From Schaalia odontolytica (GTDB lineage Bacteria > Actinomycetota > Actinomycetes > Actinomycetales > Actinomycetaceae): a DNA stretch of 32,000 nucleotides. This document shows, in pieces, positions 1,108 through 10,932 of this stretch (the stretch's first letter is position 1; every line of letters begins with the position of its first letter). The stretch lies in the NCBI RefSeq assembly GCF_005696695.1, contig NZ_CP040006.1, forward strand, positions 120,001 to 152,000. The letters run 5' to 3'. The notes under the pieces are model-generated. The model had not been told where the DNA came from and ran no database searches. It saw only the letters and a program-made list of their open reading frames with translations. Position numbers and translations under genes: made by a program.

Positions 1108-3804
1108 ATGAGACTCACTGACATGCAGGGCGGCGTCCGCAGGAGTAGCGCTGCCGACCGAGACGACCATCCGCCGGCGGGTGGCCACCTGGCCGACCGC
1201 GCGGTGCAGGCGTCGCGCCTGTGTCGCATTACCGTGCGCGGAATCGTCGCCGCCGCACTGACGGGGCTTACCCTCTCCGGCCTCGTTCTGGTTCCTGGTG
1301 CAGCGCGAGCGGAGGCTCCCCTCGAGACCCCCGGCGCCGACAGCATCACCTTCAATCGATCCGAAGGGCGCATCGGCGCGGCCGTCCTCAACGACTCTGG
1401 TACTGACCGCACCACCGTCGTCGCCGACAACTCCTACTTCGGTATCGTGCCCGGTATGACGGTCTACAATTCCGCGGACCCCAACCAGCGCTCGGTTGCG
1501 TATCGAGCGGGATACTCCCAGGACTGGCTCGACGCGAATACAGCGAAGAGCGGTGACTACTGGTCCTATGTCACCCGAGGCGTTGCCTGGGACTACCACT
1601 TGGCCGCCTATTACCAGTACCCCTACTACGGCGAATACACGCCCGACGCGATCTCGACCTCGACGACGAGCGCGCTCGGCTACAAGCCGAACAATCCCGG
1701 AACCGTCCCGCTCAACAGCACCTTCCTGATCGGGGCCGTGCGCCACAACAACTTCCCTATCTACTCCCAGATCCACTGGGTGCACTCCTCGTTCGACATC
1801 CGCATCGGCAATCTGGAGGAGTCCTTCCCCTTCGACCAGCACGAGACGACGAACGACACGGACACGACCGCGGTCAAGCGTGAGGGTGGGCCCTACAAGG
1901 TGGCCTACCGTGCTTCCGCGCCGCGCACCTGCCCGTCGGACGCCCCCTACTACGCGCTCAACCGAAATACGGGTACCACGTGGTACTGCTACAAGTACGT
2001 GGGCGAGGGCAACGGCAACCGAGATATCTACACCGACTACCCGCAGAACTACCCCGAGTCCAAGGGTCGGCCCGACCAGACGCCCGACTCGGATGACGTC
2101 CTGACGATCACGAAGACCACCTCGGACCAGACGATCACCGTCAACGGGATCCCCTACCGCCTCGTCCTCTACGGATTCGTGCCCAACGCGGACGGCAACT
2201 GCCCCGCCACCCCGCCCGCCGGCTCGACCCCGGTCTCCACCTTCACGACGAAGGAAAGCCAGGCATCCTTCGGCTGCCTCTACGGCTCTTTCAGCCAGGA
2301 GCGCTACGTGCGCATCGCGAAAGCCGTCACCGAGGACTCTGAGCAGGTGGGTGACGCGATTCCCCCGTTCACCTTCACGACGATGGGCGTGGGTGACTGG
2401 GCCGCGCCCACGGGAACCCCGCTCACCACGAGCGTGACGGCCGACGGCTTCGTCGGGTGGAACTCCTTCGAGGATGCGAACCTGACCCCGACCGCCTACG
2501 GCGAGGCCGGGGCGGCCACCTCCGGCTACAGGGCCTTCATGCCCGGCTTCTCCCAGTTCATCATCGCCGAGACGGGGCCGCGAATCGCCGGCAGGTTCCC
2601 GTTGGCTTTTGGTGCGCAGGGGCGTTTCGGCCCCTGGAAGACCAACGACGACCCGAACTCCGCGCAGTGGAGCCTCGTCGACGTGACCTGCCTGAACGGT
2701 GTGGGCGAGCGAGTGAACGTCACCCGAGACGCTGAGACGGGCGGCGTGGATTTCTCCCAGGTTGCCCCGGCCTCGTCCCCGGCGGCCCTGCCGATCACCT
2801 GCACGTTCACCAACCGCGAGCAGGTGCCCAAGCTGCGCATTCAGAAGGAGCTTGAATCCGTCGAGGGCGCGACGACGGATGACATCACCGTCACCTACCG
2901 CATCACGGCCACGAACGACGGGACCCTCGCGGGCACGACCGGGCGCCTGACGGACACGCCGAACTTCGCGCCGGGCCTGACCGTGCGCTCCGCTACCGTC
3001 GTGAGCAGCCTCGACGGGCTTGATGCCGCGACCGCGCAGGCGGCCGCCGCCTCCTACGTCCTCACCGAGGGGGCGACCGTCGAGCCGGGCGCGTCCTCCT
3101 CATGGTTCATCCGCATGAAGGTCACGCGCGATAGTTCGGCCGCCGGGTATTCCGAGTCGCTGCTCGAGTGCGCCTCGTCGAACGACCGCCTCACCCCGGG
3201 CCACGGCCTCTACAACGCGGTGACGGGCGCCTACGATCACGATGGCGAGGCCAACAATGAGGCCTGTGCACCCGCGCGCCCCCGACCGATCCGCATCGAA
3301 AAGGCCGGCACACAGCCGGTCGGAACCCCCAACGACGACGGCACATACCCGCTCGACGGCGCGGCCTTCGCGATCTACGACAACGAGGCCCTGGCTGGGG
3401 ACCCGGTCTCCGTCCTCGATGGAGGGTCGCGCTTCGTGACCGCGCCCCTCGAAACCGGTAAGAACTACTGGCTCGTGGAGACCCGCGCGCCCGTCGGGCA
3501 CGCTCTGCTGCCCCGTCCCGTCGCCTTCCATATCGAGGCTGGCGCGGATGCTGACGCAACGACCGTCATTAAGACGGACTTCGGCGCCGACGAGGGCTTC
3601 AGCTCCGTGCGTGTCCTGCCCGCTTCGGGCAGCCTGCCCGGGGATCGCACGCCCGGCATTCGCGTCGTCGACACCCAGGTCGGCGTGCTCCCCAAGGCCG
3701 GATCCATCGGCATCTACCCCCAGCTCGTGGGCGGAGCTGCCTTGCTTGGCCTCGCCGGAGCATGCGCGTGGCTGCGCCGCCGAGAGCGGACGCAGGTCGC
3801 GTAA
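1108..3804 (+). CDS. Large cell-wall-anchored surface protein (sortase substrate) with a C-terminal SpaA/Cna-B-like domain; adhesin or pilin-like
   Basis: 898-aa ORF. N-terminal signal-like segment ...AAALTGLTLSGLVLVPGAARAEA. C-terminal LPKAG (3688-3702) followed by a hydrophobic stretch and an RRRERT tail, which is a sorting signal. The segment GAAFAIYDNEAL...GKNYWLVETRAPVGHALLPRPVAF resembles prealbumin-fold SpaA/Cna-B domains. An alternative start is ATG 1123. Confidence 0.85.
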   Translation: MRLTDMQGGVRRSSAADRDDHPPAGGHLADRAVQASRLCRITVRGIVAAALTGLTLSGLVLVPGAARAEAPLETPGADSITFNRSEGRIGAAVLNDSGTDRTTVVADNSYFGIVPGMTVYNSADPNQRSVAYRAGYSQDWLDANTAKSGDYWSYVTRGVAWDYHLAAYYQYPYYGEYTPDAISTSTTSALGYKPNNPGTVPLNSTFLIGAVRHNNFPIYSQIHWVHSSFDIRIGNLEESFPFDQHETTNDTDTTAVKREGGPYKVAYRASAPRTCPSDAPYYALNRNTGTTWYCYKYVGEGNGNRDIYTDYPQNYPESKGRPDQTPDSDDVLTITKTTSDQTITVNGIPYRLVLYGFVPNADGNCPATPPAGSTPVSTFTTKESQASFGCLYGSFSQERYVRIAKAVTEDSEQVGDAIPPFTFTTMGVGDWAAPTGTPLTTSVTADGFVGWNSFEDANLTPTAYGEAGAATSGYRAFMPGFSQFIIAETGPRIAGRFPLAFGAQGRFGPWKTNDDPNSAQWSLVDVTCLNGVGERVNVTRDAETGGVDFSQVAPASSPAALPITCTFTNREQVPKLRIQKELESVEGATTDDITVTYRITATNDGTLAGTTGRLTDTPNFAPGLTVRSATVVSSLDGLDAATAQAAAASYVLTEGATVEPGASSSWFIRMKVTRDSSAAGYSESLLECASSNDRLTPGHGLYNAVTGAYDHDGEANNEACAPARPRPIRIEKAGTQPVGTPNDDGTYPLDGAAFAIYDNEALAGDPVSVLDGGSRFVTAPLETGKNYWLVETRAPVGHALLPRPVAFHIEAGADADATTVIKTDFGADEGFSSVRVLPASGSLPGDRTPGIRVVDTQVGVLPKAGSIGIYPQLVGGAALLGLAGACAWLRRRERTQVA

Positions 3805-3930: not shown

Positions 3931-5426
<1,496 letters not shown>

Positions 5427-5484
5427 GACTGCGAACCTCCACTGTTAATGCTTGCTGCGACTTCGCCGTTGAGTCCAGTGCTCA

Positions 5485-5889
5485 TTAATCTTCTTCCTCC
5501 GAAAGCTCGAACTGCGGGAGGGGATCGCCGTTCTCGTCCAGCATTCTGTGGCGCTTCATGTACTGGTACCGAGGGTCTATCCATCGGGGTACGGGTATCG
5601 GTGAAAAATACCAGACAACACCGATGATGAAAATTGCCAAAGTTATTGCAATAAGTGTCAGTTGGACAAACTGCGGAAATCTTCCATCATTGCCGATTGT
5701 CACGAAGCTGCCGACCAGAAATGCACTTCCTGTTGCAAGGGTGCCGATTGATTGGTACTTGTCATTCATGCGTGTTGCTGAGCTAATGAAGCGCGCATTC
5801 TGGCCAAATTGCGAATCCGTATAAGTCTCGCAATACCACATAGCTAGAATTGCGAGGCTAAACGGTATGCCGATGATTCCCCAAATCAT
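5485..5889 (-). CDS. Small 3-TM membrane protein, paralogue 3 of the putative immunity family
   Basis: The ORF track extends to 6015, overlapping the upstream gene. ATG 5889 (GGAGGTGG upstream) gives MIWGIIGIPFSLAILAMWYCETYTDSQFGQNARF..., aligning with the N-termini of the other paralogues. The tail is [38 protein letters not shown]. Confidence 0.8.
   Translation of the reverse strand: MIWGIIGIPFSLAILAMWYCETYTDSQFGQNARFISSATRMNDKYQSIGTLATGSAFLVGSFVTIGNDGRFPQFVQLTLIAITLAIFIIGVVWYFSPIPVPRWIDPRYQYMKRHRMLDENGDPLPQFELSEEED
5496..5589 (-). repeat. Conserved 94-bp 3' gene module, copy in paralogue 3
   Basis: 6 mismatches in 94 against 8166-8259 by hand alignment. The rest of the gene is strongly diverged. 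Confidence 0.85.
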
Positions 5890-5968
5890 GAGGGTTGTCC
5901 ACCTCCGTGTATAGCGGAATAAGTAGCACTGTTGATGCCTGTTTTGACTTCTCGGTCGAATCCACTGC

Positions 5969-6394
5969 TCATGAATCTTCTTCCTCCGAAAGCTCGAACT
6001 GTGGGAGGGGATCACCGTTCTCGTCCAGCATGCCGTGCCGCTTCATGTATTGGTACCGAGCGTCGGCCCAGCGGGGGACAGGGAATGGGAAGAAGCAAAT
6101 GAAACCTATGACAATAAGTGCTAGCCCAACGATGGCGATACTGAGGGAAGGAATAAGGATGATGCGTATGTTGGGAAGGAGGTCGGTTAGAATTGCCGCC
6201 AGTGCAAACAGTGAGAATCCTGTTGAGATAAATAGTGGAGACAGGGAATCGCCGCTTGTGTTCTTATCGTTTCGATCGCCCATCTCTCGCCATAGTGCGG
6301 CAATAGGGGAGTCTGTGTAAGTTTCCACATACCATGAATACAGGCCGAATAGACCGATGGCTAGGCCCGCAAAGGACCATAGATAGCTCATCAT
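5969..6394 (-). CDS. Small 3-TM membrane protein, paralogue 2 of the putative immunity family
   Basis: 141 aa, beginning MMSYLWSFAGLAIGLFGLYSWYVETYTDSP. AGGAG lies upstream. The tail is [39 protein letters not shown]. Confidence 0.8.
   Translation of the reverse strand: MMSYLWSFAGLAIGLFGLYSWYVETYTDSPIAALWREMGDRNDKNTSGDSLSPLFISTGFSLFALAAILTDLLPNIRIILIPSLSIAIVGLALIVIGFICFFPFPVPRWADARYQYMKRHGMLDENGDPLPQFELSEEEDS
5983..6076 (-). repeat. Conserved 94-bp 3' gene module, copy in paralogue 2
   Basis: 5 mismatches in 94 against 8166-8259 by hand alignment. About 30 bp beyond the stop codon is also shared with the paralogue 3 copy. Confidence 0.85.
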
Positions 6395-6524
6395 CTGCTC
6401 CTATCTTCCGATTGAGCTGAGGAATGTCTCGTTAAATCTGCTTGCTATCGATTGATCCAATCGCGCTGTCGAAGAGCAGTCGTCGTAATGGTGTGTGCTC
6501 AGAAATGAACTGCGGCCTGCTGTA

Positions 6525-6541
6525 TGTCGTGGACGAGGTCA
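6525..6541 (+). repeat. Third, partial (17-bp) copy of the islet boundary repeat
   Basis: TGTCGTGGACGAGGTCA is identical to 9922-9938. As at 5016-5018, its TCA (6539-6541) is the stop codon of the minus-strand gene ending here. Confidence 0.7.
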
Positions 6542-6910
6542 GCTTGATGAGGAGGGGGTCACGGCTGTGATCTGCGTGTTCCCCGTCGGAACAGGGGCCG
6601 TGTACTTGTGGTTGTATTCGTCGTTGTAGCGTTGGATCTCGCGCATGACGTCCGCCACCGCGTCGTCCGTGCACTTGAAGTCCTCTGTTGCGGCCGCTAG
6701 GCCCAAGTAGATGCCGTTCAGGATCCACGCCATGTGGTTGAGTGTTGAGTTCAGAGCCGTGACGTGTTTGCTCAGAGTTGCATCGTGTTCGCTGCCCGTG
6801 TCGGATGTACTGAGGGCTGGCGTCTTCCTGAGTTCTGCGCACGCGTTGCTGAGCTTCGCAATGATCGAATTAACTTCGTCGTAATTCCATTCGAGAACGA
6901 CGTAAGTCAT
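6539..6910 (-). CDS. Small helical protein, possibly WXG100/ESAT-6-like (secretion-associated); function unknown
   Basis: The ORF track starts at 6961. ATG 6910 (GAGAGGAAA upstream) overlaps the upstream stop as ATGA. The ~123-aa product MTYVVLEWNYDEVNSIIAKLSNACAELRK...LGLAAATEDFKCTDDAVADVMREIQRY looks like a two-helix hairpin. No clean W-x-G motif is present. Confidence 0.6.
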   Translation of the reverse strand: MTYVVLEWNYDEVNSIIAKLSNACAELRKTPALSTSDTGSEHDATLSKHVTALNSTLNHMAWILNGIYLGLAAATEDFKCTDDAVADVMREIQRYNDEYNHKYTAPVPTGNTQITAVTPSSSS

Positions 6911-7596
6911 GGCAGTTTCCTCTCGGGTGAAAGGGCGAAGAGATACGTGATGAGTGCCCACAGCTGCGTGTTGTAGATGGGGTGGATGGGGATGTGAGGT
7001 CCGGTGCTGGGTGCGAAAAGCGGAGCCTCGACCCTGTAGGCGGCGGCTGGCGTGATGAACGTGGAGAGGGTAGAGGTCGGAACGAAGGAGCCCTTCTTCG
7101 TGCGCTCTTCCCGGATCCAGGTGGTGTATGCCCAGCGTTGGGCCACGAGAGCCTGCGCGAAGGCGGAATCTGAGGGGCCGTAGGAGGAGTAATTCTCGAG
7201 GAGCTGGGCCGTCTGTTCGGTCGTGCCTTGCTGTGCGGCGTACACGATGGCCGTCGGTAGCACGGGAGGTCCATCGAAGACGGCGGGGTTAGGCGTGAGC
7301 GGAGATATCGCCGCCGTGACGTGGGGAATTTCCTCGTTATCGATCTGATAAATGTGAGTCTCAGTGTCGCCGTCGGGGGTGGTAGCGGTGCGGGCGACGA
7401 CGCAGGGCCCCGCCTGCATCCAGATGAGAGCCTGGCGGCACTGGGAAGCATCCGGAGACGTGGTGGCGATGACCAATCGCGAGCGAGCCGTGCGCATGAG
7501 AGCCGCGAGATGGTCCGCGTCGCCGGTGAGTCCCTCGGAGGTGGCGAAGCTTGAGGTGACATCACCCGGAATGATGATGTGAGGACGGTCAGGCAT
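6907..7596 (-). CDS. Hypothetical cytoplasmic protein (229 aa); EspG-like secretion chaperone is a speculative assignment
   Basis: ATG 7596 has GGAGG 6 nt upstream. It overlaps the upstream gene end by 8 nt and the downstream gene by ATGA. No signal peptide or TM segment. The family was not recognised with confidence. Confidence 0.65.
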   Translation of the reverse strand: MPDRPHIIIPGDVTSSFATSEGLTGDADHLAALMRTARSRLVIATTSPDASQCRQALIWMQAGPCVVARTATTPDGDTETHIYQIDNEEIPHVTAAISPLTPNPAVFDGPPVLPTAIVYAAQQGTTEQTAQLLENYSSYGPSDSAFAQALVAQRWAYTTWIREERTKKGSFVPTSTLSTFITPAAAYRVEAPLFAPSTGPHIPIHPIYNTQLWALITYLFALSPERKLP

Positions 7597-8122
7597 TGCG
7601 CACCTCCAGGCTCATGATGATCGCGAGAACGTCATCGTTCAGGTCGCCGAAAGCGGGTGTCGTCATCGTCGCAGTCGCCGTGAGGAGGAAGTCATTCCCG
7701 CCGTCGGAATGAATCCACGCCCACTGGCAGGCGGTGATGGGGACGCTGCCCTGAATGTAGATTCCCGTGCGCAGGTGTGAAGATTCGGGTCGCGCCGGCC
7801 ACTCGCAATCCTCCAGCATGCGAAAGCCGGGAACCTGATCGGACATGGACTGTGCCGAGTCGGCGAGCGCCTGCGCGGGCGTCGTGCTCGCGGGGATAGG
7901 GGAGGCAAGCACGAGGAGGGTGGGGGTGAAATCGTAATCGGCATCGATGGGGCCGACGGCGAGGGCGATAACGCCACCTTCGGCCGGATGCTGATCGCTG
8001 TCTGGCGTTCGCTCTTGCGCGTCGCCGGCGCTCCCGAATGCCTGGTTGAGGATCGAGGAGATCTCCTCCTTCGGGCACGACGACCAGCGGGGAGGCATCA
8101 GCCAATAGGTCGACAGACTCAT
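7589..8122 (-). CDS. Hypothetical cytoplasmic protein (~177 aa); possible adaptor/chaperone (alpha/beta sandwich pattern)
   Basis: The ORF track starts at 8134. ATG 8122 overlaps the paralogue 1 stop as ATGA and has GGGGGA upstream. The C-terminal pattern GFRMLE...RTGIYIQGSVPITACQWAWIH...FLLTATATMTTPAFGDLNDDVLAIIMSLEV is reminiscent of DUF1795/LpqN-like folds (weak, by eye). Confidence 0.6.
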   Translation of the reverse strand: MSLSTYWLMPPRWSSCPKEEISSILNQAFGSAGDAQERTPDSDQHPAEGGVIALAVGPIDADYDFTPTLLVLASPIPASTTPAQALADSAQSMSDQVPGFRMLEDCEWPARPESSHLRTGIYIQGSVPITACQWAWIHSDGGNDFLLTATATMTTPAFGDLNDDVLAIIMSLEVRNA

Positions 8123-8559
8123 GGTGTCCCCCATCCCTGATCGTTGTCAGCGGACTCCTCGTCGTCCTCCGAAAGCTCGAACTGCGGGAGGGGATCGCCG
8201 TTCTCGTCCAGCATTCCGTGGCGCTTCATGTACTGGTACCGAGCGTCGGCCCAGCGGGGAATAGGCAATGGAGAAAAACGCCAGATCAGAGAAATGAGTA
8301 TGACAAGCAAGGTGAGGATAAGTAGAGAGTTGATAACGAGGTTTGGCAATTTAAGCTCGTTGCATATGATGACGATGGCTGCAAAAATGAATACGACTCC
8401 TGTTGCGGGGAATCCGATGGCATCTGACTTAGGATGTGCGTGAAAGGTTGTGCTAATAAAGCGTGAATTCTTCCCGTATGACGTATCCGTGAAGGTCTGA
8501 ATGTACCATGTCGCTAAAATAACTGTTCCGAATAGAAGGGCAAGTATTCCCAATAACAT
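8119..8559 (-). CDS. Small 3-TM membrane protein, paralogue 1; putative cognate immunity protein
   Basis: 146 aa, beginning MLLGILALLFGTVILATWYIQTFTDTSYGKNSRF. ATG 8559 lies 2 nt after the toxin stop, and its GGAGGA RBS is formed by the last codons of the toxin gene. The tail is [39 protein letters not shown]. Confidence 0.8.
   Translation of the reverse strand: MLLGILALLFGTVILATWYIQTFTDTSYGKNSRFISTTFHAHPKSDAIGFPATGVVFIFAAIVIICNELKLPNLVINSLLILTLLVILISLIWRFSPLPIPRWADARYQYMKRHGMLDENGDPLPQFELSEDDEESADNDQGWGTP
8166..8259 (-). repeat. Conserved 94-bp 3' gene module, copy in paralogue 1
   Basis: CCTCCGAAAGCTCGAACTGCGGGAGGGGATCGCCGTTCTCGTCCAGCAT...CCCAGCGGGG is shared with the three other paralogues. 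Confidence 0.85.
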
Positions 8560-8561
8560 TA

Positions 8562-9749
8562 TTATCCTCCGTGAATTGCTGTGTGTATCCCGTTGTTCGC
8601 TAGGTCTGCTAGGTAGCTTCCGGTGGCGCTTCCAATAAGTCCGCCAACTACTCCTCCGATAATTCCTCCAGCAAGAATGCCGACGGGGCCTCCGAATGCG
8701 CCAATGGTAGCGCCGATTTTTGCGCCTGCGACACCACCTGCGAAACCTAGTCCGCCGCTGGCACCGCCCTTGAGACCGGCTCTTGCTACCTTCTCGCCCT
8801 GTCCCATCTCCGGGTGGTGGTAGGAGTCCGACTGGTAGCTGTCGTAGGCGCTGACGACTCCGTCGAGGACCGCGCAGGCGCGGCCTGCGACTTTGCCGCC
8901 AATGCGCAATGCGTCGGCGGTCTTGATCGCTCGACTGCCGCCCTTGACGGCGTCCACCCCCGGGACTTTCCAGTTCTTGAGGTTCCCTCGCTCGGTGATC
9001 TGCTTCCAGGGGGACGCGTCTTTGATTCCGGCCGGCGCCTGGTACTTGGCGCCCTTCGCCTGTAGATAGACCGACTCGATCCCGTCTGCGAGGGTATTGC
9101 GCATGGTGTCCGCCCAGCCCGGTAGGCGAGCTGGCACATTCAACCCCGTGGGGAATCCGTACGTGCCGACGAATTTGTTGAACACGGGGAGGAGGGTCGA
9201 CTCCCAGACGGTGGGGTCGATACCCGCGAGGTCGTCGCCGAACAGTGTTTCCGCGTAGGCGAACTTCCTCTGGTTGATCTCGCAGCGTGAGCGCAGCGAC
9301 GCGAAGAAGGCGCCAACGCCGCCCGGGACGTTTGCTGGGTGGCTGATGGTCACTTTCGTTCCGTCACGAGAAACCGTGAGCCCGGCGCCGCTGGCGTCGG
9401 TGACAATGGCTCGAAACTCTGTCCTGATGGGTTTCAGGGTGCCCCCGTAGTCCTCCAGGGCGGATTGCAGCGAGCGGAAACATGACAGCGCATGCTCGCT
9501 CGCGGAGATGACATTCGTCAGGTGCTCGACGACGGTCTCCACCAGCCTGGCTCTCTGATGTTCGACCATCCCTCGGGCGGCCGTCGCGTCGCCAATGGCC
9601 TCGTCGAGTGCCGCGATCGGTTTGTCGCACTGGTCCTTCAGCGACAGGATCGCGTCCACCTTAACCGGAAAGTCCCACGAAAAGGACTCGGCGAATTCTA
9701 CGGTTCCTGCAGATGTGGGAACCGTTGAGGTGGCTGGAAGGGGGGGCAT
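8562..9749 (-). CDS. Putative secreted polymorphic toxin: helical N-terminal region plus C-terminal glycine-zipper (membrane-inserting) module
   Basis: The ORF runs to 9797 (411 aa). ATG 9749 has GGAG 7 nt upstream, giving ~395 aa. No Sec signal peptide. The N-terminal ~100 aa is helical (VKVDAILSLKDQCDKPIAALDEAIGDATAARGMVEHQRARLVETVVEHL...). The C-terminal ~60 aa is GGASGGLGFAGGVAGAKIGATIGAFGGPVGILAGGIIGGVVGGLIGSATG, a GxxxG/A zipper. Confidence 0.75.
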   Translation of the reverse strand: MPPLPATSTVPTSAGTVEFAESFSWDFPVKVDAILSLKDQCDKPIAALDEAIGDATAARGMVEHQRARLVETVVEHLTNVISASEHALSCFRSLQSALEDYGGTLKPIRTEFRAIVTDASGAGLTVSRDGTKVTISHPANVPGGVGAFFASLRSRCEINQRKFAYAETLFGDDLAGIDPTVWESTLLPVFNKFVGTYGFPTGLNVPARLPGWADTMRNTLADGIESVYLQAKGAKYQAPAGIKDASPWKQITERGNLKNWKVPGVDAVKGGSRAIKTADALRIGGKVAGRACAVLDGVVSAYDSYQSDSYHHPEMGQGEKVARAGLKGGASGGLGFAGGVAGAKIGATIGAFGGPVGILAGGIIGGVVGGLIGSATGSYLADLANNGIHTAIHGG

Positions 9750-9917
9750 TGCTTCACTCCGTTGGAACAATCGGGCGACATGCGTGTTGCGCATCACTTA
9801 TTGGTCAGCGTACTCCGGTTGTTTAACAATCTGCAGTGAAACCTGGCCGAAAAGTGCCGACGAATGATGTCGCCTGAGGTCGTGAGCGGATTTCCCATAC
9901 CGCCAGTGGCTGGAGTT

Positions 9918-9948
9918 TGCGTGTCGTGGACGAGGTCACCTCGGTGGG
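9918..9948 (+). repeat. 31-bp direct repeat, copy at the distal end of the islet
   Basis: TGCGTGTCGTGGACGAGGTCACCTCGGTGGG; see 4998-5028. It lies in the divergent intergenic region between the toxin gene and the 9964 gene. Confidence 0.85.
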
Positions 9949-9963
9949 GGTGGGGGCGGTATC

Positions 9964-10932
9964 GTGTTCGCCATGACGACGCCCACCTTCGCCGACGTTG
10001 ACGAGGCCCTCGCCCGCCACGACTACCGCGCGGCCCTGTCTATCCTCGAATCCCTCGAGGTCGTGGGTGAAGACGCCTGTTACCGTCGCGACGTCCAGGC
10101 CGCGGCCTGCGCCGACCGCCTCGGCCTGTACCCCCTGTGCGAGGAGTATGCGACGCGCGCACGCGCCTACGGCGACGACATGGCCGACCCCTTCGCGCTC
10201 ATCGCCCGCGCCCAGCGCCGCCAAGGCCTCGTCGCGGACGCGGAGGCCACGGCCTCGGCCGGCATGCGCCTGCATCCCCAATCCGCCGAGATAGCGCGTG
10301 AGCTGACCCTCTGCCTCGTCGACCTCGGACGCTACGACGAGGCGCGCCCGGTCTCCGAGATTGCCACCGACGGCCTTCCCAACGACGTCGAGCTCCTCAT
10401 GGCATACGGGCGCCTGTGGGCACCCGTGGAACCCAATGGCGCCCAGTGGGCCTTCGGGCGCGCCACCGCGAACGCCCCGGACCTGGCCGAAGCGAAGTTC
10501 GCATACGACTCCCTGGCCCACCCGCTCAAGGGAGCGGGGCGCTCCTCGTACGACATCGAGATGGAGCCGCCCGTCGCCGAGGCCTACGGACGGATGCTCA
10601 AGCGCGTGACCTTCGCCCTCGACAAAGCCTGGATTTTCGCCATTTTCTCGGGCTTCGGCTGCGGAATCGGCTACGTCGCAACCCTGCGAGTCATGACGGA
10701 TGAGCTCGCGCTGTTCTTCTTCCTCCTGTACGCCGTCATGTCGCTCAGCGGCTACCTCATGACGTTCGCGCAGATCGCGCTCTTCAATCGCGTCCTCCCG
10801 CGAGGCGTGCGCCTGACCTTCAGGATCCTGCGCAAGCGCTTCCCGGACCTGGGGAGCTCCGTCATGGACTTCGTTCGCATGATCGTGCTGGCGGGGCTCA
10901 TCCTCTTCGGGCTGATGGCGCTCACCCGCTGA
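9964..10932 (+). CDS. Hypothetical membrane protein: TPR-like helical N-terminal half plus a C-terminal multi-TM region
   Basis: 322-aa ORF (GTG 9964 or ATG 9973, with a G-rich RBS-like run upstream). Helical repeat-like segments are present (ALARHDYRAALSILESL..., LVDLGRYDEARPV...). The C-terminus has several hydrophobic spans (WIFAIFSGFGCGIGYVATL, LFFFLLYAVMSLSGYLMTF, MIVLAGLILFGLMAL). Confidence 0.7.
   Translation: MFAMTTPTFADVDEALARHDYRAALSILESLEVVGEDACYRRDVQAAACADRLGLYPLCEEYATRARAYGDDMADPFALIARAQRRQGLVADAEATASAGMRLHPQSAEIARELTLCLVDLGRYDEARPVSEIATDGLPNDVELLMAYGRLWAPVEPNGAQWAFGRATANAPDLAEAKFAYDSLAHPLKGAGRSSYDIEMEPPVAEAYGRMLKRVTFALDKAWIFAIFSGFGCGIGYVATLRVMTDELALFFFLLYAVMSLSGYLMTFAQIALFNRVLPRGVRLTFRILRKRFPDLGSSVMDFVRMIVLAGLILFGLMALTR

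Follow-up and report, generated by a model that had tools for sequence, protein, structure and literature searches.

[quoted passage not shown] The systems closest to the Schaalia odontolytica locus described here are EsxX/ExiAB/ExiCD, TelE/TipE and TspA/TsaI, all of the T7SSb type, and the actinobacterial Eat loci; the likeness to EsxX, TelE and TspA is one of architecture and description rather than of aligned toxin-module sequences. TspA has a C-terminal domain that depolarises membranes, as we propose for the Schaalia toxin; TsaI, like the candidate immunity protein of Schaalia, is a polytopic membrane protein, and several immunity paralogues follow downstream in both loci. The N-terminus of TspA, however, is of LXG type and its zipper is shorter, and TsaI belongs to another family (DUF443). 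We know of no toxin-tail remnants at TspA/TsaI loci.

Glycine-zipper T7SS toxins depolarise membranes, and some of them have soluble as well as polytopic immunity proteins, the latter also present as orphan copies (PMC12744356; PMC10434224). TspA of Staphylococcus aureus is a membrane-depolarising T7SSb toxin too (cited in PMC12744356). Tse4/5 and CdzC/D also belong to the functional class of glycine-zipper membrane toxins. EsxX of S. aureus ST398 (T7SSb) combines, like the Schaalia toxin, a signal-less helical N-terminus of T7SS type with a C-terminal glycine zipper. In both loci a polytopic membrane protein is encoded beside the toxin, with such genes also found as orphan immunity genes, and conserved soluble proteins, which in the case of EsxX sequester the zipper in the cytoplasm, and small helical partner proteins are co-encoded (PMC12744356). 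The differences are several. Schaalia is an actinobacterium with a T7SSa-type Esx system, and the N-terminus of its toxin appears WXG100-like rather than LXG (no Pfam LXG match). The soluble proteins of EsxX are DUF5085/GyrI-like, whereas one of those in Schaalia is probably DUF1795/LpqN-like and the other is without a family. The candidate immunity determinant is a single 3-TM gene instead of a pair of 6-TM proteins, and the small helical gene lies downstream in Schaalia and upstream in EsxX.

TelE of Streptococcus gallolyticus, a T7SSb toxin, likewise carries a C-terminal zipper, which is essential for its membrane damage; several toxin variants occur among isolates, and the gene order of toxin, multipass membrane protein and soluble proteins is the same (PMC10434224). 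However, TelE has an LXG domain and the protein proven to confer immunity to it is TipE, a soluble DUF5085 protein (PMC10434224), whereas allelic variation in Schaalia is centred on a tail of ~25 residues and tied to the membrane protein. T7SS toxins are spread across Actinomycetota, and the Eat loci (EatA, TapA1/A2, EatI) resemble ours in having a polymorphic toxin with a helical N-domain in T7SSa-bearing hosts, one or more small helical accessory proteins and a downstream immunity gene that fits the target compartment (PMC13444075). EatA itself is an arabinanase of family GH183 whose inhibitor is a lipoprotein, and the Tap genes lie upstream (PMC13444075). The Eat loci are not known to us to include a glycine-zipper payload, a DUF1795-like accessory protein or displaced cassettes.

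Viewed beside these systems, the locus is probably, on the evidence of its sequence, a polymorphic, Esx-exported glycine-zipper toxin–immunity locus of oral Schaalia/Pauljensenia (Actinomycetaceae). The sequence anatomy, homology network, operon coupling, co-variation and orphan cassettes that lead to this reading were directly observed and are described below.

Putative toxin gene and C-terminal module

The window analysed here is a stretch of 32,000 nucleotides of S. odontolytica contig NZ_CP040006.1, and all features are given in window positions. The toxin gene occupies 8562..9797 (−) and encodes 411 aa if read from the GTG at 9797 to the stop codon at 8562–8564. An ATG at 9749 (residue 17, MPPLPATS...) is preceded at 10 nt by a GGAG and is the start used by most homologues, so that the product is likely the 395-aa protein; residue numbers refer to the 411-aa reading unless stated otherwise. 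In the ten genome loci compared, which are from Schaalia, Pauljensenia or Actinomyces, the flanks were constant, with a TPR-membrane gene on one side and nrdF on the other. The locus was also found on hundreds of oral-metagenome contigs. An ORF at 9823..10521 (−) was rejected as an upstream gene, as it is without support and overlaps the conserved TPR gene on the opposite strand.

The first-pass annotation of this DNA had proposed a C-terminal glycine zipper long enough for two membrane helices, quoting a string that corresponds to residues 345–396. Such a zipper is present at residues 341–395 (8613..8777, −). Glycine makes up 40% of these 55 residues, compared with 4% of residues 1–120 and 11% of residues 121–340. 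The segment contains 16 overlapping GxxxG motifs against a mean of 7.9 in shuffled sequences (p<1e-5); none of 100,000 random permutations of these residues reached 16, and therefore the i+4 periodicity of glycine exceeds what composition gives. The GxxxG motifs form two ladders split by G-G-P371. In 35 diverse relatives, the invariant columns were precisely those of two ladders of glycine at i+4 spacing (G358/G362/G366 and G373/G377/G381/G385), with the near-invariant Pro371 between them. This pattern fits two zipper helices with a GGP turn between them, in keeping with the length that had been claimed. The segment is hydrophobic and not charged, and the Kyte-Doolittle transmembrane threshold was clearly exceeded by the second zipper helix only. 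The Pfam family Gly-zipper_Omp matched the toxin below threshold (E 0.018); apart from this, searches of the toxin against Pfam and NCBIfam gave nothing at E<=10.

While the zipper was confirmed, the extent of the C-terminal module had to be revised, as the conserved unit is larger (~296–404). In the module (8565..8912, −; residues 296–411), the two-helix glycine zipper comes after a helix and the conserved loop 'SYQSDSYHHPEMGxGEK'. These last ~110 residues recur as the C-terminus of hundreds of proteins. A search of representative sequences returned 444 matches at E<=1e-3, most of them common only over residues ~280–390 (395-aa numbering), and the module formed the extreme C-terminus in nearly all of 136 matching proteins. 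Both PAAR-like proteins and the tape-measure proteins of phages were also found to carry the same zipper module. In the PDB, the only matches to the module profile were stretches of zipper, namely those in a tape-measure protein, in the cargo protein of a crAss-like phage and in SlyB, and a word-indexed search with this profile returned mostly short fragments and generic glycine-zipper proteins. Homology supports the assignment of the zipper to a conserved, portable C-terminal module of toxin type rather than to a generic anchor.

N-terminal hairpin and candidate secretion route

The toxin had been described as a signal-less protein with a helical N-terminus resembling T7SS substrates, though with no clean WxG or LxG motif. 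Its first 140 residues indeed contained neither a hydrophobic N-terminal segment nor an RR pair (no Sec/Tat signal), and WxG and LxG motifs were absent from the same residues. The suggested structure prediction was of partial use: the N-terminal part was predicted to be helical, but AlphaFold2 on the shallow alignment gave a poor model (pLDDT 41.9). A Foldseek search of the PDB with this model returned only meaningless matches, all with E>1, and model and search were discarded.

The suggested profile search of the N-terminus likewise succeeded in part. WXG100, WXG100_2, T7SS_signal and LXG did not match the toxin itself even at E<=10, but they did match its relatives. Among 93 module-bearing relatives scanned against Pfam, 16 matched WXG100 (best E 7.4e-8), seven WXG100_2, five T7SS_signal, one LXG (E 0.0088), one PPE and two DUF4280 (PAAR-like). 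The WXG100, WXG100_2 or T7SS_signal matches lay at the position of the toxin's N-terminal helical hairpin (9399..9692, −; residues 36–133), many relatives carried WxG at positions 42–50, and some also matched the central region of the toxin. One relative (P0197) scored 31.1 bits against WXG100 (cutoff 27.3) and aligned to toxin residues 85–381. The central region (8913..9398, −; residues 134–295) opens with a conserved 'A..AGLTV' motif common to the WxG-bearing relatives.

In hhalign comparisons, the hairpin alone matched the WxG-bearing relatives with a probability of 95.8% (E 6.5e-9) and an intermediate group with 97.4% (E 9e-12), and the intermediate group matched the WxG group with 99.2%. 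Residues Q81-R-A83 of the toxin fell on the W-x-G position of the relatives. Searched against the PDB, the hairpin profile found predominantly generic and designed coiled coils, with S. aureus EsxA matched end to end but weakly (E 0.016). The hairpin matched no non-secretion family. These results support the interpretation of the N-terminus as a divergent, WXG100-like T7SS-substrate hairpin and putative targeting domain. The presence of an EspC-like gene in the operon and of Esx in the genus (PMC13622651) is consistent with it. S. odontolytica F0309 has a functional Esx system, and each of its distal candidate substrates adjoins a WXG100-like hairpin gene (PMC13622651).

Operon, candidate immunity genes and orphan cassettes

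The toxin heads a translationally coupled operon of five genes, in the order toxin, 3-TM protein, probable DUF1795/Eag-like protein, 229-aa protein and EspC-like small helical protein. The junctions are, in this order, a 2-nt gap, ATGA, an 8-nt overlap and ATGA. The candidate for the cognate immunity gene (8119..8559, −) has its ATG 2 nt after the toxin stop and encodes 146 aa with three predicted transmembrane (TM) segments and a conserved cytoplasmic tail. Pfam/NCBIfam scans of the toxin's neighbours gave nothing above threshold, and the called genes of a near-identical locus were without Pfam matches.

The next gene (7589..8122, −) shares an ATGA between its start codon and the stop codon of the immunity gene, and encodes a soluble protein of 177 aa. 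One orthologue (P0464) is named 'DUF1795 domain-containing' in UniRef. Lpp-LpqN matched 20 of 24 orthologues (best E 0.0098) and DcrB (PF08786) two of the 24 (E 0.19), all under the cutoff. The AlphaFold2 model of the protein was poor (pLDDT 38.6, pTM 0.42), and its top Foldseek matches in the PDB were MTC28, LpqN, SciW-Rhs1 TMD, EagT6-Tse6 and DcrB (E 7.5e-4 to 7e-2, TM 0.29–0.45). Because the model is poor, the hints are weak, though convergent, and we consider a DUF1795/Lpp-LpqN (Mog1/PsbP-like, Eag-chaperone-like) fold probable. The Eag (DUF1795) chaperones of the pairs EagT6-Tse6 and SciW-Rhs1 (PMC7773334; PDB 6xrf, 6xrr), which are among these model-based matches, are likewise encoded beside an effector whose hydrophobic helices must stay soluble before export. 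However, Eag proteins serve the Gram-negative type VI secretion system (T6SS) and bind the N-terminal TM domains of prePAAR effectors (PMC7773334), whereas Schaalia is Gram-positive, the hydrophobic helices of its toxin are C-terminal, and the 177-aa fold is of low confidence and its binding putative.

The soluble and conserved 229-aa protein (6907..7596, −; 85% mean identity), whose gene overlaps the preceding one by 8 nt, had no detectable family. DUF5085 (ExiA/ExiB/TipE) matched neither of the two soluble operon proteins nor their orthologues. The two were also rejected as an ExiA/ExiB-like paralogue pair, as hhalign showed no mutual similarity. The last gene (6539..6910, −; ATGA overlap with the preceding gene) encodes a helical protein of ~123 aa. 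Four orthologues (55–63% identity) scored 19.6–23.4 bits against T7SS_ESX_EspC (PF10824), just under the cutoff of 23.5, over profile positions 19–97 of 100. The window's own copy had no EspC match, and hhalign found no similarity between the ~123-aa protein and the toxin hairpins. PDB sequence searches with the three accessory proteins (177, 229 and ~123 aa) returned nothing. We regard the ~123-aa protein as a candidate secretion partner from the WXG100 superfamily. Its gene lies downstream of the toxin, a position that sets it apart from the Lap/Tap genes in described loci.

The toxin ends in a hypervariable tail (8565..8639, −; residues 387–411, LIGSATGSYLADLANNGIHTAIHGG), which represents one of seven tail classes. 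In 71 Schaalia/Pauljensenia loci, the contingency table of the seven tail classes against immunity classes was perfectly diagonal, with a one-to-one correspondence, and the tail class predicted the class of the downstream immunity gene. The metagenome scan was made with a narrow module alignment that recovers only close Schaalia-type loci, and was used for co-variation and not for distant contexts. In 11 loci, the toxin C-terminus co-varied with the immunity protein (Mantel r=0.72, p=5e-5), and the N-terminal identity of the toxin was uncorrelated with it (rho −0.005). Physical adjacency alone could account for part of this linkage. Identity between classes was 0.33 for the toxin tail and 0.33 for the TM part of the immunity protein, compared with 0.93 for the zipper core, 0.81 for the N-terminal and central parts of the toxin, 0.80 for the 177-aa protein and 0.98 for nrdF. 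Hypervariability is therefore confined to the tail and the immunity TM region, while the flanking segments retain 67–98% identity between classes.

Four paralogous 3-TM proteins are encoded in the window; their TM parts diverge, whereas their tail is conserved. Three of them belong to orphan cassettes. Orphan cassette 1 (5969..6448, −) consists of a class-D tail remnant ('IASRFNETFLS', 6416–6448) and immunity paralogue 2 (5969–6394), orphan cassette 2 (5485..5945, −) of a class-B remnant (KTGINSATYSAIHGGGQP, 5892–5945; tblastn E 9.5e-8) and paralogue 3 (5485–5889), and orphan cassette 3 (5016..5464, −) of a class-C remnant (EVAASINSGGSQ, 5429–5464) and paralogue 4 (5016–5426). All three orphan immunity genes thus follow a remnant of the matching toxin-tail class. 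The other loci contain zero to five orphan immunity genes each. CDI (cdiA-CT/cdiI) and Rhs orphan modules also consist of displaced 3' toxin fragments with cognate immunity genes downstream of the full-length toxin; the Schaalia remnants differ in keeping only the last ~10–20 toxin codons, the variable unit being a short tail and not a whole domain. The locus shows the hallmarks of polymorphic toxin–immunity systems, namely a conserved N-terminal part, a variable C-terminal part, a co-varying adjacent gene and downstream orphan cassettes. The co-varying 3-TM gene and the three cassettes of tail remnant and immunity gene support the earlier interpretation of the protein as an effector or toxin.

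Proposed mechanism and alternatives

By analogy with EsxX, TelE and TspA, we infer secretion, membrane depolarisation and protection, and propose the following for the secretion route, chaperoning, membrane activity, protection and target. The WXG100-like hairpin would target the toxin to Esx (type VII), probably paired with the EspC-like protein of the same operon. Before export, the producer's soluble 177-aa DUF1795/Eag-like protein probably keeps the hydrophobic zipper soluble and harmless, possibly joined by the 229-aa protein in shielding it. In a neighbouring cell, the two zipper helices would insert into the cytoplasmic membrane and assemble there as an oligomeric channel that conducts ions, which would dissipate the membrane potential of this target cell. 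The 3-TM protein encoded directly after the toxin would guard against toxin from outside, with specificity set by the immunity TM region and the last ~25 residues of the toxin. Recombination at the conserved flanks may exchange tail-plus-immunity cassettes, and displaced cassettes would stay downstream as orphan immunity genes that protect from the alleles of other strains. The locus points to strain-against-strain warfare in the mouth.

We consider it unlikely that the locus is a toxin–immunity cassette that works without a T7SS, either as a bacteriocin- or holin-like toxin released by lysis or another route, or as an intracellular abortive-infection or addiction module with the 3-TM protein as antidote. 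In favour of such a cassette, the toxin has no direct match to any T7SS family and T7SS core genes are absent from the 32-kb window. The module also occurs on PAAR-like and phage tape-measure proteins and is therefore independent of the delivery system. However, the N-terminal hairpin is homologous to the WXG100/T7SS_signal hairpins of relatives, an EspC-like gene lies within the same operon, and S. odontolytica has a working Esx system whose distal substrates are laid out in this way (PMC13622651). Orphan immunity arrays, moreover, are typical of toxins that come from other cells instead of addiction modules. That the C-terminus is a mere anchor, or an intrinsically disordered region like that of AesB, in a non-toxic tail-anchored or glycine-rich disordered protein is very improbable. 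Although only one zipper helix clearly passes the Kyte-Doolittle threshold, AlphaFold failed to model the region and S. odontolytica AesB has a glycine-rich disordered region (PMC13622651), neither anchoring nor disorder agrees with strict i+4 ladders that are invariant in 35 diverse proteins and periodic beyond composition, with a hydrophobic rather than charged segment, or with a portable module fused to secretion domains. The hypervariable tail is also tied to the class of a membrane protein, and displaced cassettes are kept. A simple anchor accounts for none of the ladders, the portability, the tail linkage or the retained cassettes.

Saccharibacteria (TM7) epibionts, and not sister strains, might alternatively be the target of the Esx effector, in which case the 3-TM proteins would shield the producer's own membrane. 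In S. odontolytica, Esx keeps the proliferation of TM7 in check, and infection with TM7 induces five distal candidate substrates; a glycine-zipper toxin was, however, not linked to the phenotype in that study (PMC13622651). Seven co-varying classes, together with orphans against alleles that the strain itself does not make, are best explained by inter-Schaalia intoxication, and we regard an exclusive TM7 target as quite unlikely. Targets in TM7 and in sister strains are not mutually exclusive.

As an Esx-exported toxin–immunity locus, this DNA would provide a concrete and very abundant actinobacterial example of a glycine-zipper T7SS toxin, in which tail and immunity TM region make up a clear allelic specificity code, the displacement of cassettes has left a record, and the accessory proteins lie outside the known Bacillota families. 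It raises the question of whether a C-terminal zipper bound for T7SS export is kept shielded by an Eag-like protein, and it bears on ecology at the level of strains in the oral microbiome and perhaps on conflict between host and epibiont. A broader and more tentative possibility is that actinobacterial Esx systems export widespread, so far undescribed glycine-zipper channel toxins with a warhead chaperoned by a DUF1795/Eag-like protein and with the tail/TM specificity code. The T6SS and T7SS would then have converged on, or exchanged, both the warhead, whose module is also found on PAAR-like proteins, and its chaperone. DUF1795/Eag-like TM-domain chaperones, so far tied to the Gram-negative T6SS, would serve Esx, and competition between Schaalia strains in the human mouth would be structured by a minimal, swappable code of specificity that consists of the ~25-residue tail and the TM region of the 3-TM immunity protein. 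Such a toxin might act on Saccharibacteria epibionts as well. A genetically tractable host is available in S. odontolytica, for which an allelic-exchange plasmid and an eccC mutant exist.

Candidate toxin and its C-terminal module

The candidate toxin was encoded on the minus strand by a 411-aa ORF with a GTG start (8562..9797), on which residues are numbered unless stated otherwise. Since an ATG at 9749 (MPPLPATS...) was the start in most of 248 close homologues and was preceded by GGAG 10 nt upstream, the product is probably 395 aa long. Residues 1–140 contained no hydrophobic N-terminal segment, twin arginine, WxG or LxG, in agreement with the first-pass annotation, which had reported neither a Sec or Tat signal nor a clean LxG/WxG motif. 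Glycine made up 40% of residues 341–395, compared with 4% of residues 1–120 and 11% of residues 121–340. Residues 341–395 contained 16 overlapping GxxxG motifs; the mean in 100,000 shuffles of the same 55 residues was 7.9, and none reached 16. When 35 diverse relatives were aligned, the invariant columns formed two i+4 ladders (G358/362/366 and G373/377/381/385) with a near-invariant Pro371 between them, a pattern that fits two zipper helices and an intervening GGP turn. The earlier description of a zipper in the last ~60 residues was accurate, but the conserved C-terminal unit (the C-module) was larger, spanning approximately residues 296–404.

Direct Pfam and NCBIfam scans of the query gave no match, including to LXG, WXG100 or T7SS signal models, except a sub-threshold one to Gly-zipper_Omp. 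A set of 1.84 billion representative proteins was searched exhaustively and yielded 444 matches (E<=1e-3). Only a handful were full-length relatives (27–41% identity); most shared only residues ~280–390 (395-aa numbering) with the query, and the module was located at the extreme C-terminus in nearly all of 136 matched proteins. A Pfam scan of 93 module-bearing proteins detected WXG100 (16/93, best E 7.4e-8), WXG100_2 (7/93), T7SS_signal (5/93), LXG (1/93), PPE (1/93) and PAAR-like DUF4280 (2/93). Many module-bearing relatives had W-x-G at positions 42–50. Because relatives sharing the module differed in their N-terminal domains, it behaves like a portable warhead, carried mainly by type VII and occasionally by type VI targeting domains. 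In P0232 and P0238, DUF4280 N-termini were fused to the same zipper module, so the putative warhead is common to T7SS-type and T6SS-type carriers. The zipper-module profile also matched a segment of phage tail tape-measure proteins (P0256, P0258 and others; PDB 9ki1_g, E 1.3e-6), which may mean that both use one kind of membrane-insertion device, or that they are alike in composition alone.

N-terminal hairpin and operon

A T7SS-substrate N-domain of WXG/LXG-like type had been proposed for the toxin, and comparison with its relatives favoured the WXG-like form. The alignment with the relative P0197, which has a WXG100 domain at 8–91 above the Pfam cutoff, spanned query residues 85 to 381. N-terminal hairpins alone, with all downstream sequence excluded, were then compared profile to profile (hhalign). 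The query family matched the WxG-bearing group of relatives with 95.8% probability (E 6.5e-9) and an intermediate group with 97.4% (E 9e-12); the latter two groups matched each other with 99.2% (E 7.5e-20). Q81-R-A83 of the query aligned with the W-x-G position of the other hairpins. A PDB profile search with the hairpin returned mostly coiled-coil noise, with S. aureus EsxA and an ESAT-6-like protein matched end to end (E 0.016–0.03). Our conclusion, based on homology rather than curated family membership, is that a divergent WXG100-type hairpin, its motif lost, forms the N-terminus.

The toxin gene (8562–9749) was the first of five translationally coupled minus-strand genes. It was followed after a 2-nt gap by the gene for a 146-aa protein (8119–8559) with three predicted TM segments and a conserved basic/acidic tail, the immunity candidate. 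Next came genes for a 177-aa protein (7589–8122, ATGA overlap), a 229-aa protein (6907–7596, 8-nt overlap) and a ~123-aa helical protein (6539–6910, ATGA overlap). The 177-aa protein is probably a DUF1795-like accessory protein, as suggested by hints that are individually weak but agree. One orthologue was labelled 'DUF1795 domain-containing protein' in UniRef, and sub-threshold matches among orthologues were to Lpp-LpqN (20/24) and DcrB (=DUF1795; 2/24). The AlphaFold model was poor (pLDDT 38.6); its best PDB matches were MTC28, LpqN, SciW with the Rhs1 transmembrane domain, EagT6-Tse6 and DcrB. In the Eag chaperones, DUF1795 is the Mog1/PsbP-like domain, and these proteins hold the TM helices of effectors for the T6SS (PMC3239186, PMC7773334). 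Four orthologues of the ~123-aa protein (55–63% identity) aligned with almost the whole T7SS_ESX_EspC profile at 19.6–23.4 bits (cutoff 23.5); the window's own copy had no match to this profile. The 229-aa protein matched nothing in Pfam, NCBIfam or PDB, even with eight orthologues scanned, and is a strongly conserved family without assignment, tied to this toxin system. In the homologous MAG locus L006 (11685–12228 and 13334–14225), the 177-aa gene was apparently frameshifted and two orphan immunity genes were in fragments, which could be pseudogenisation or assembly error.

Putative immunity genes and displaced cassettes

Three paralogues of the 146-aa protein followed the operon (5969–6394, 5485–5889 and 5016–5426). 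They were 39–50% identical to it, with conserved tails and diverged TM parts. Across 11 loci, the identity of the toxin C-terminus correlated with that of the membrane protein encoded next to it (Mantel r=0.72, p=5e-5), in contrast to the toxin N-terminus (rho −0.005). After 80 metagenome loci were added, 71 loci were usable and fell into 7 toxin-tail classes and 8 immunity classes, one of the latter being a sub-variant of another; the contingency table was perfectly diagonal. Mean between-class identity over 66 non-identical loci was 0.33 for both the toxin tail and the immunity TM part. It was 0.81 for the N-terminal and central parts of the toxin, 0.74 for the zipper head, 0.93 for the zipper core, 0.67 for the immunity C-terminal tail, 0.80, 0.85 and 0.72 for the 177-, 229- and ~123-aa proteins, and 0.98 for nrdF. 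Given these values, sequence comparison places the hypervariable unit in the last ~25 toxin residues and the immunity TM region, between conserved flanks.

Ahead of each of the three orphan immunity genes in the window lay a short piece of the matching toxin tail, out of its normal context: class D (IASRFNETFLS, 6416–6448), class B (KTGINSATYSAIHGGGQP, 5892–5945, tblastn E 9.5e-8) and class C (EVAASINSGGSQ, 5429–5464). In other strains, the orphan-type immunity classes were found in cognate position beside full-length toxins with those tails. This pattern is a signature of cassette displacement and resembles the displaced toxin-fragment/immunity cassettes of CDI and Rhs systems. As the genes are adjacent, tail-immunity linkage by itself is no proof of functional interaction; the argument is based on where the diversity lies and on the fact that displaced cassettes are kept. 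We consider it very likely that this is a polymorphic toxin-immunity locus.

The GC content of 5000–7000 was 0.51–0.54, compared with 0.62–0.73 for most of the remaining window. The orphan immunity array and the EspC-like gene coincide with this dip, as would fit cassettes that were imported or turn over quickly. In Schaalia sp. ORNL0103 (L010:10955–12330), an ISL3-type transposase gene (436 aa) interrupted the toxin after residue ~299, with the immunity and accessory genes intact; the toxin was lost and immunity kept.

Proposed mode of action, alternatives and genomic setting

The membrane-depolarising effector proposed in the first-pass annotation gained comparative support from the portable module, the co-varying adjacent 3-TM gene and the displaced cassettes. 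The anatomy, homology, operon coupling, co-variation and cassettes are direct results of the sequence comparison; how the toxin is secreted and chaperoned, how it acts on membranes, what it targets and how cells are protected, we infer by analogy with characterised systems. The hairpin would target the toxin to Esx, probably bundled with the EspC-like protein. Until export, the zipper would be held in a soluble, harmless state by the conserved soluble proteins, among which the DUF1795-like one is the foremost candidate. Outside the producer, the two zipper helices would enter the membrane of a neighbour and assemble there into an oligomeric ion channel. In sister cells, the cognate 3-TM protein would block channel action, and the orphan copies would shield from other toxin alleles. 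We regard this mechanism in full as reasonably likely.

Its working principle would be like that of EsxX, TelE and TspA. EsxX, a glycine-zipper toxin of the T7SS, depolarises membranes and is neutralised in the cytoplasm by the soluble ExiAB pair and from outside by the polytopic ExiCD pair, which also occurs as orphans (PMC12744356). The zipper of TelE is required for membrane damage, and its locus has the same order as here: toxin, multipass membrane protein, soluble proteins (PMC10434224). In S. odontolytica, eccC deletion abolished Esx secretion, and eight distal candidate Esx substrates each lie beside a WXG100-like hairpin gene (PMC13622651). Across Actinomycetota, T7SS toxins that have a helical N-domain, small helical partners and an immunity gene downstream are widespread (PMC13444075), and the organisation here is like that of the Eat loci of this phylum. 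Unlike EsxX, TelE, TspA and Eat, this locus combines a motif-less WXG100-like hairpin, a C-module and a 3-TM immunity family that both lack a curated family, a probable DUF1795-like accessory protein, a downstream EspC-like gene, and specificity concentrated in a ~25-residue tail. Profile tests for membership in LXG and DUF5085-based systems failed, which places the locus outside both. The papers cited here do not describe this locus, and the Schaalia Esx preprint does not mention a zipper toxin (PMC13622651).

A toxin independent of the T7SS, or an addiction module, would account for the absence of T7SS core genes from the 32-kb window and for the presence of the module in other delivery systems. 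We consider this unlikely, given the homology to WXG100-type hairpins, the EspC-like gene within the operon and the orphan immunity arrays. A plain membrane anchor or disordered glycine-rich region is contradicted by the invariant i+4 glycine ladders, the portability of the C-module and the cassette biology; a mere anchor would hardly explain the displacement of cassettes. An effector against Saccharibacteria is possible and compatible with the exported, immunity-matched toxin that we favour, but the allelic immunity code indicates conflict among strains of Schaalia.

Ten related reference-genome loci were from the oral Actinomycetaceae Schaalia, Pauljensenia or Actinomyces. In one record titled Xylanimonas cellulosilytica strain 352_XCEL (NZ_JVKM01000047.1), the locus had full synteny and 89% identity with those of Schaalia (nrdF 99%), and the organism name of the record is probably wrong. 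The remaining window was ordinary chromosome (SpaA-type pilin, nrdF, alpha/beta hydrolase, AzlC, ABC transporter, RNase H, S9 peptidase and patatin-like protein). The cluster was flanked in all loci by nrdF on one side and a divergently transcribed TPR-plus-TM gene on the other. The latter (9964–10932, plus strand) encoded TPR repeats with three C-terminal TM segments, had 86% mean identity among all genomes, and could be regulatory. Beyond nrdF, the window contained the SpaA-type pilin gene (1108–3804), unlike a locus with a 97% identical toxin (L011:16090–21221), in which nrdF was followed by an fhaA-fhaB-PP2C-ftsW/rodA-PBP operon; this border thus differs by rearrangement or insertion.
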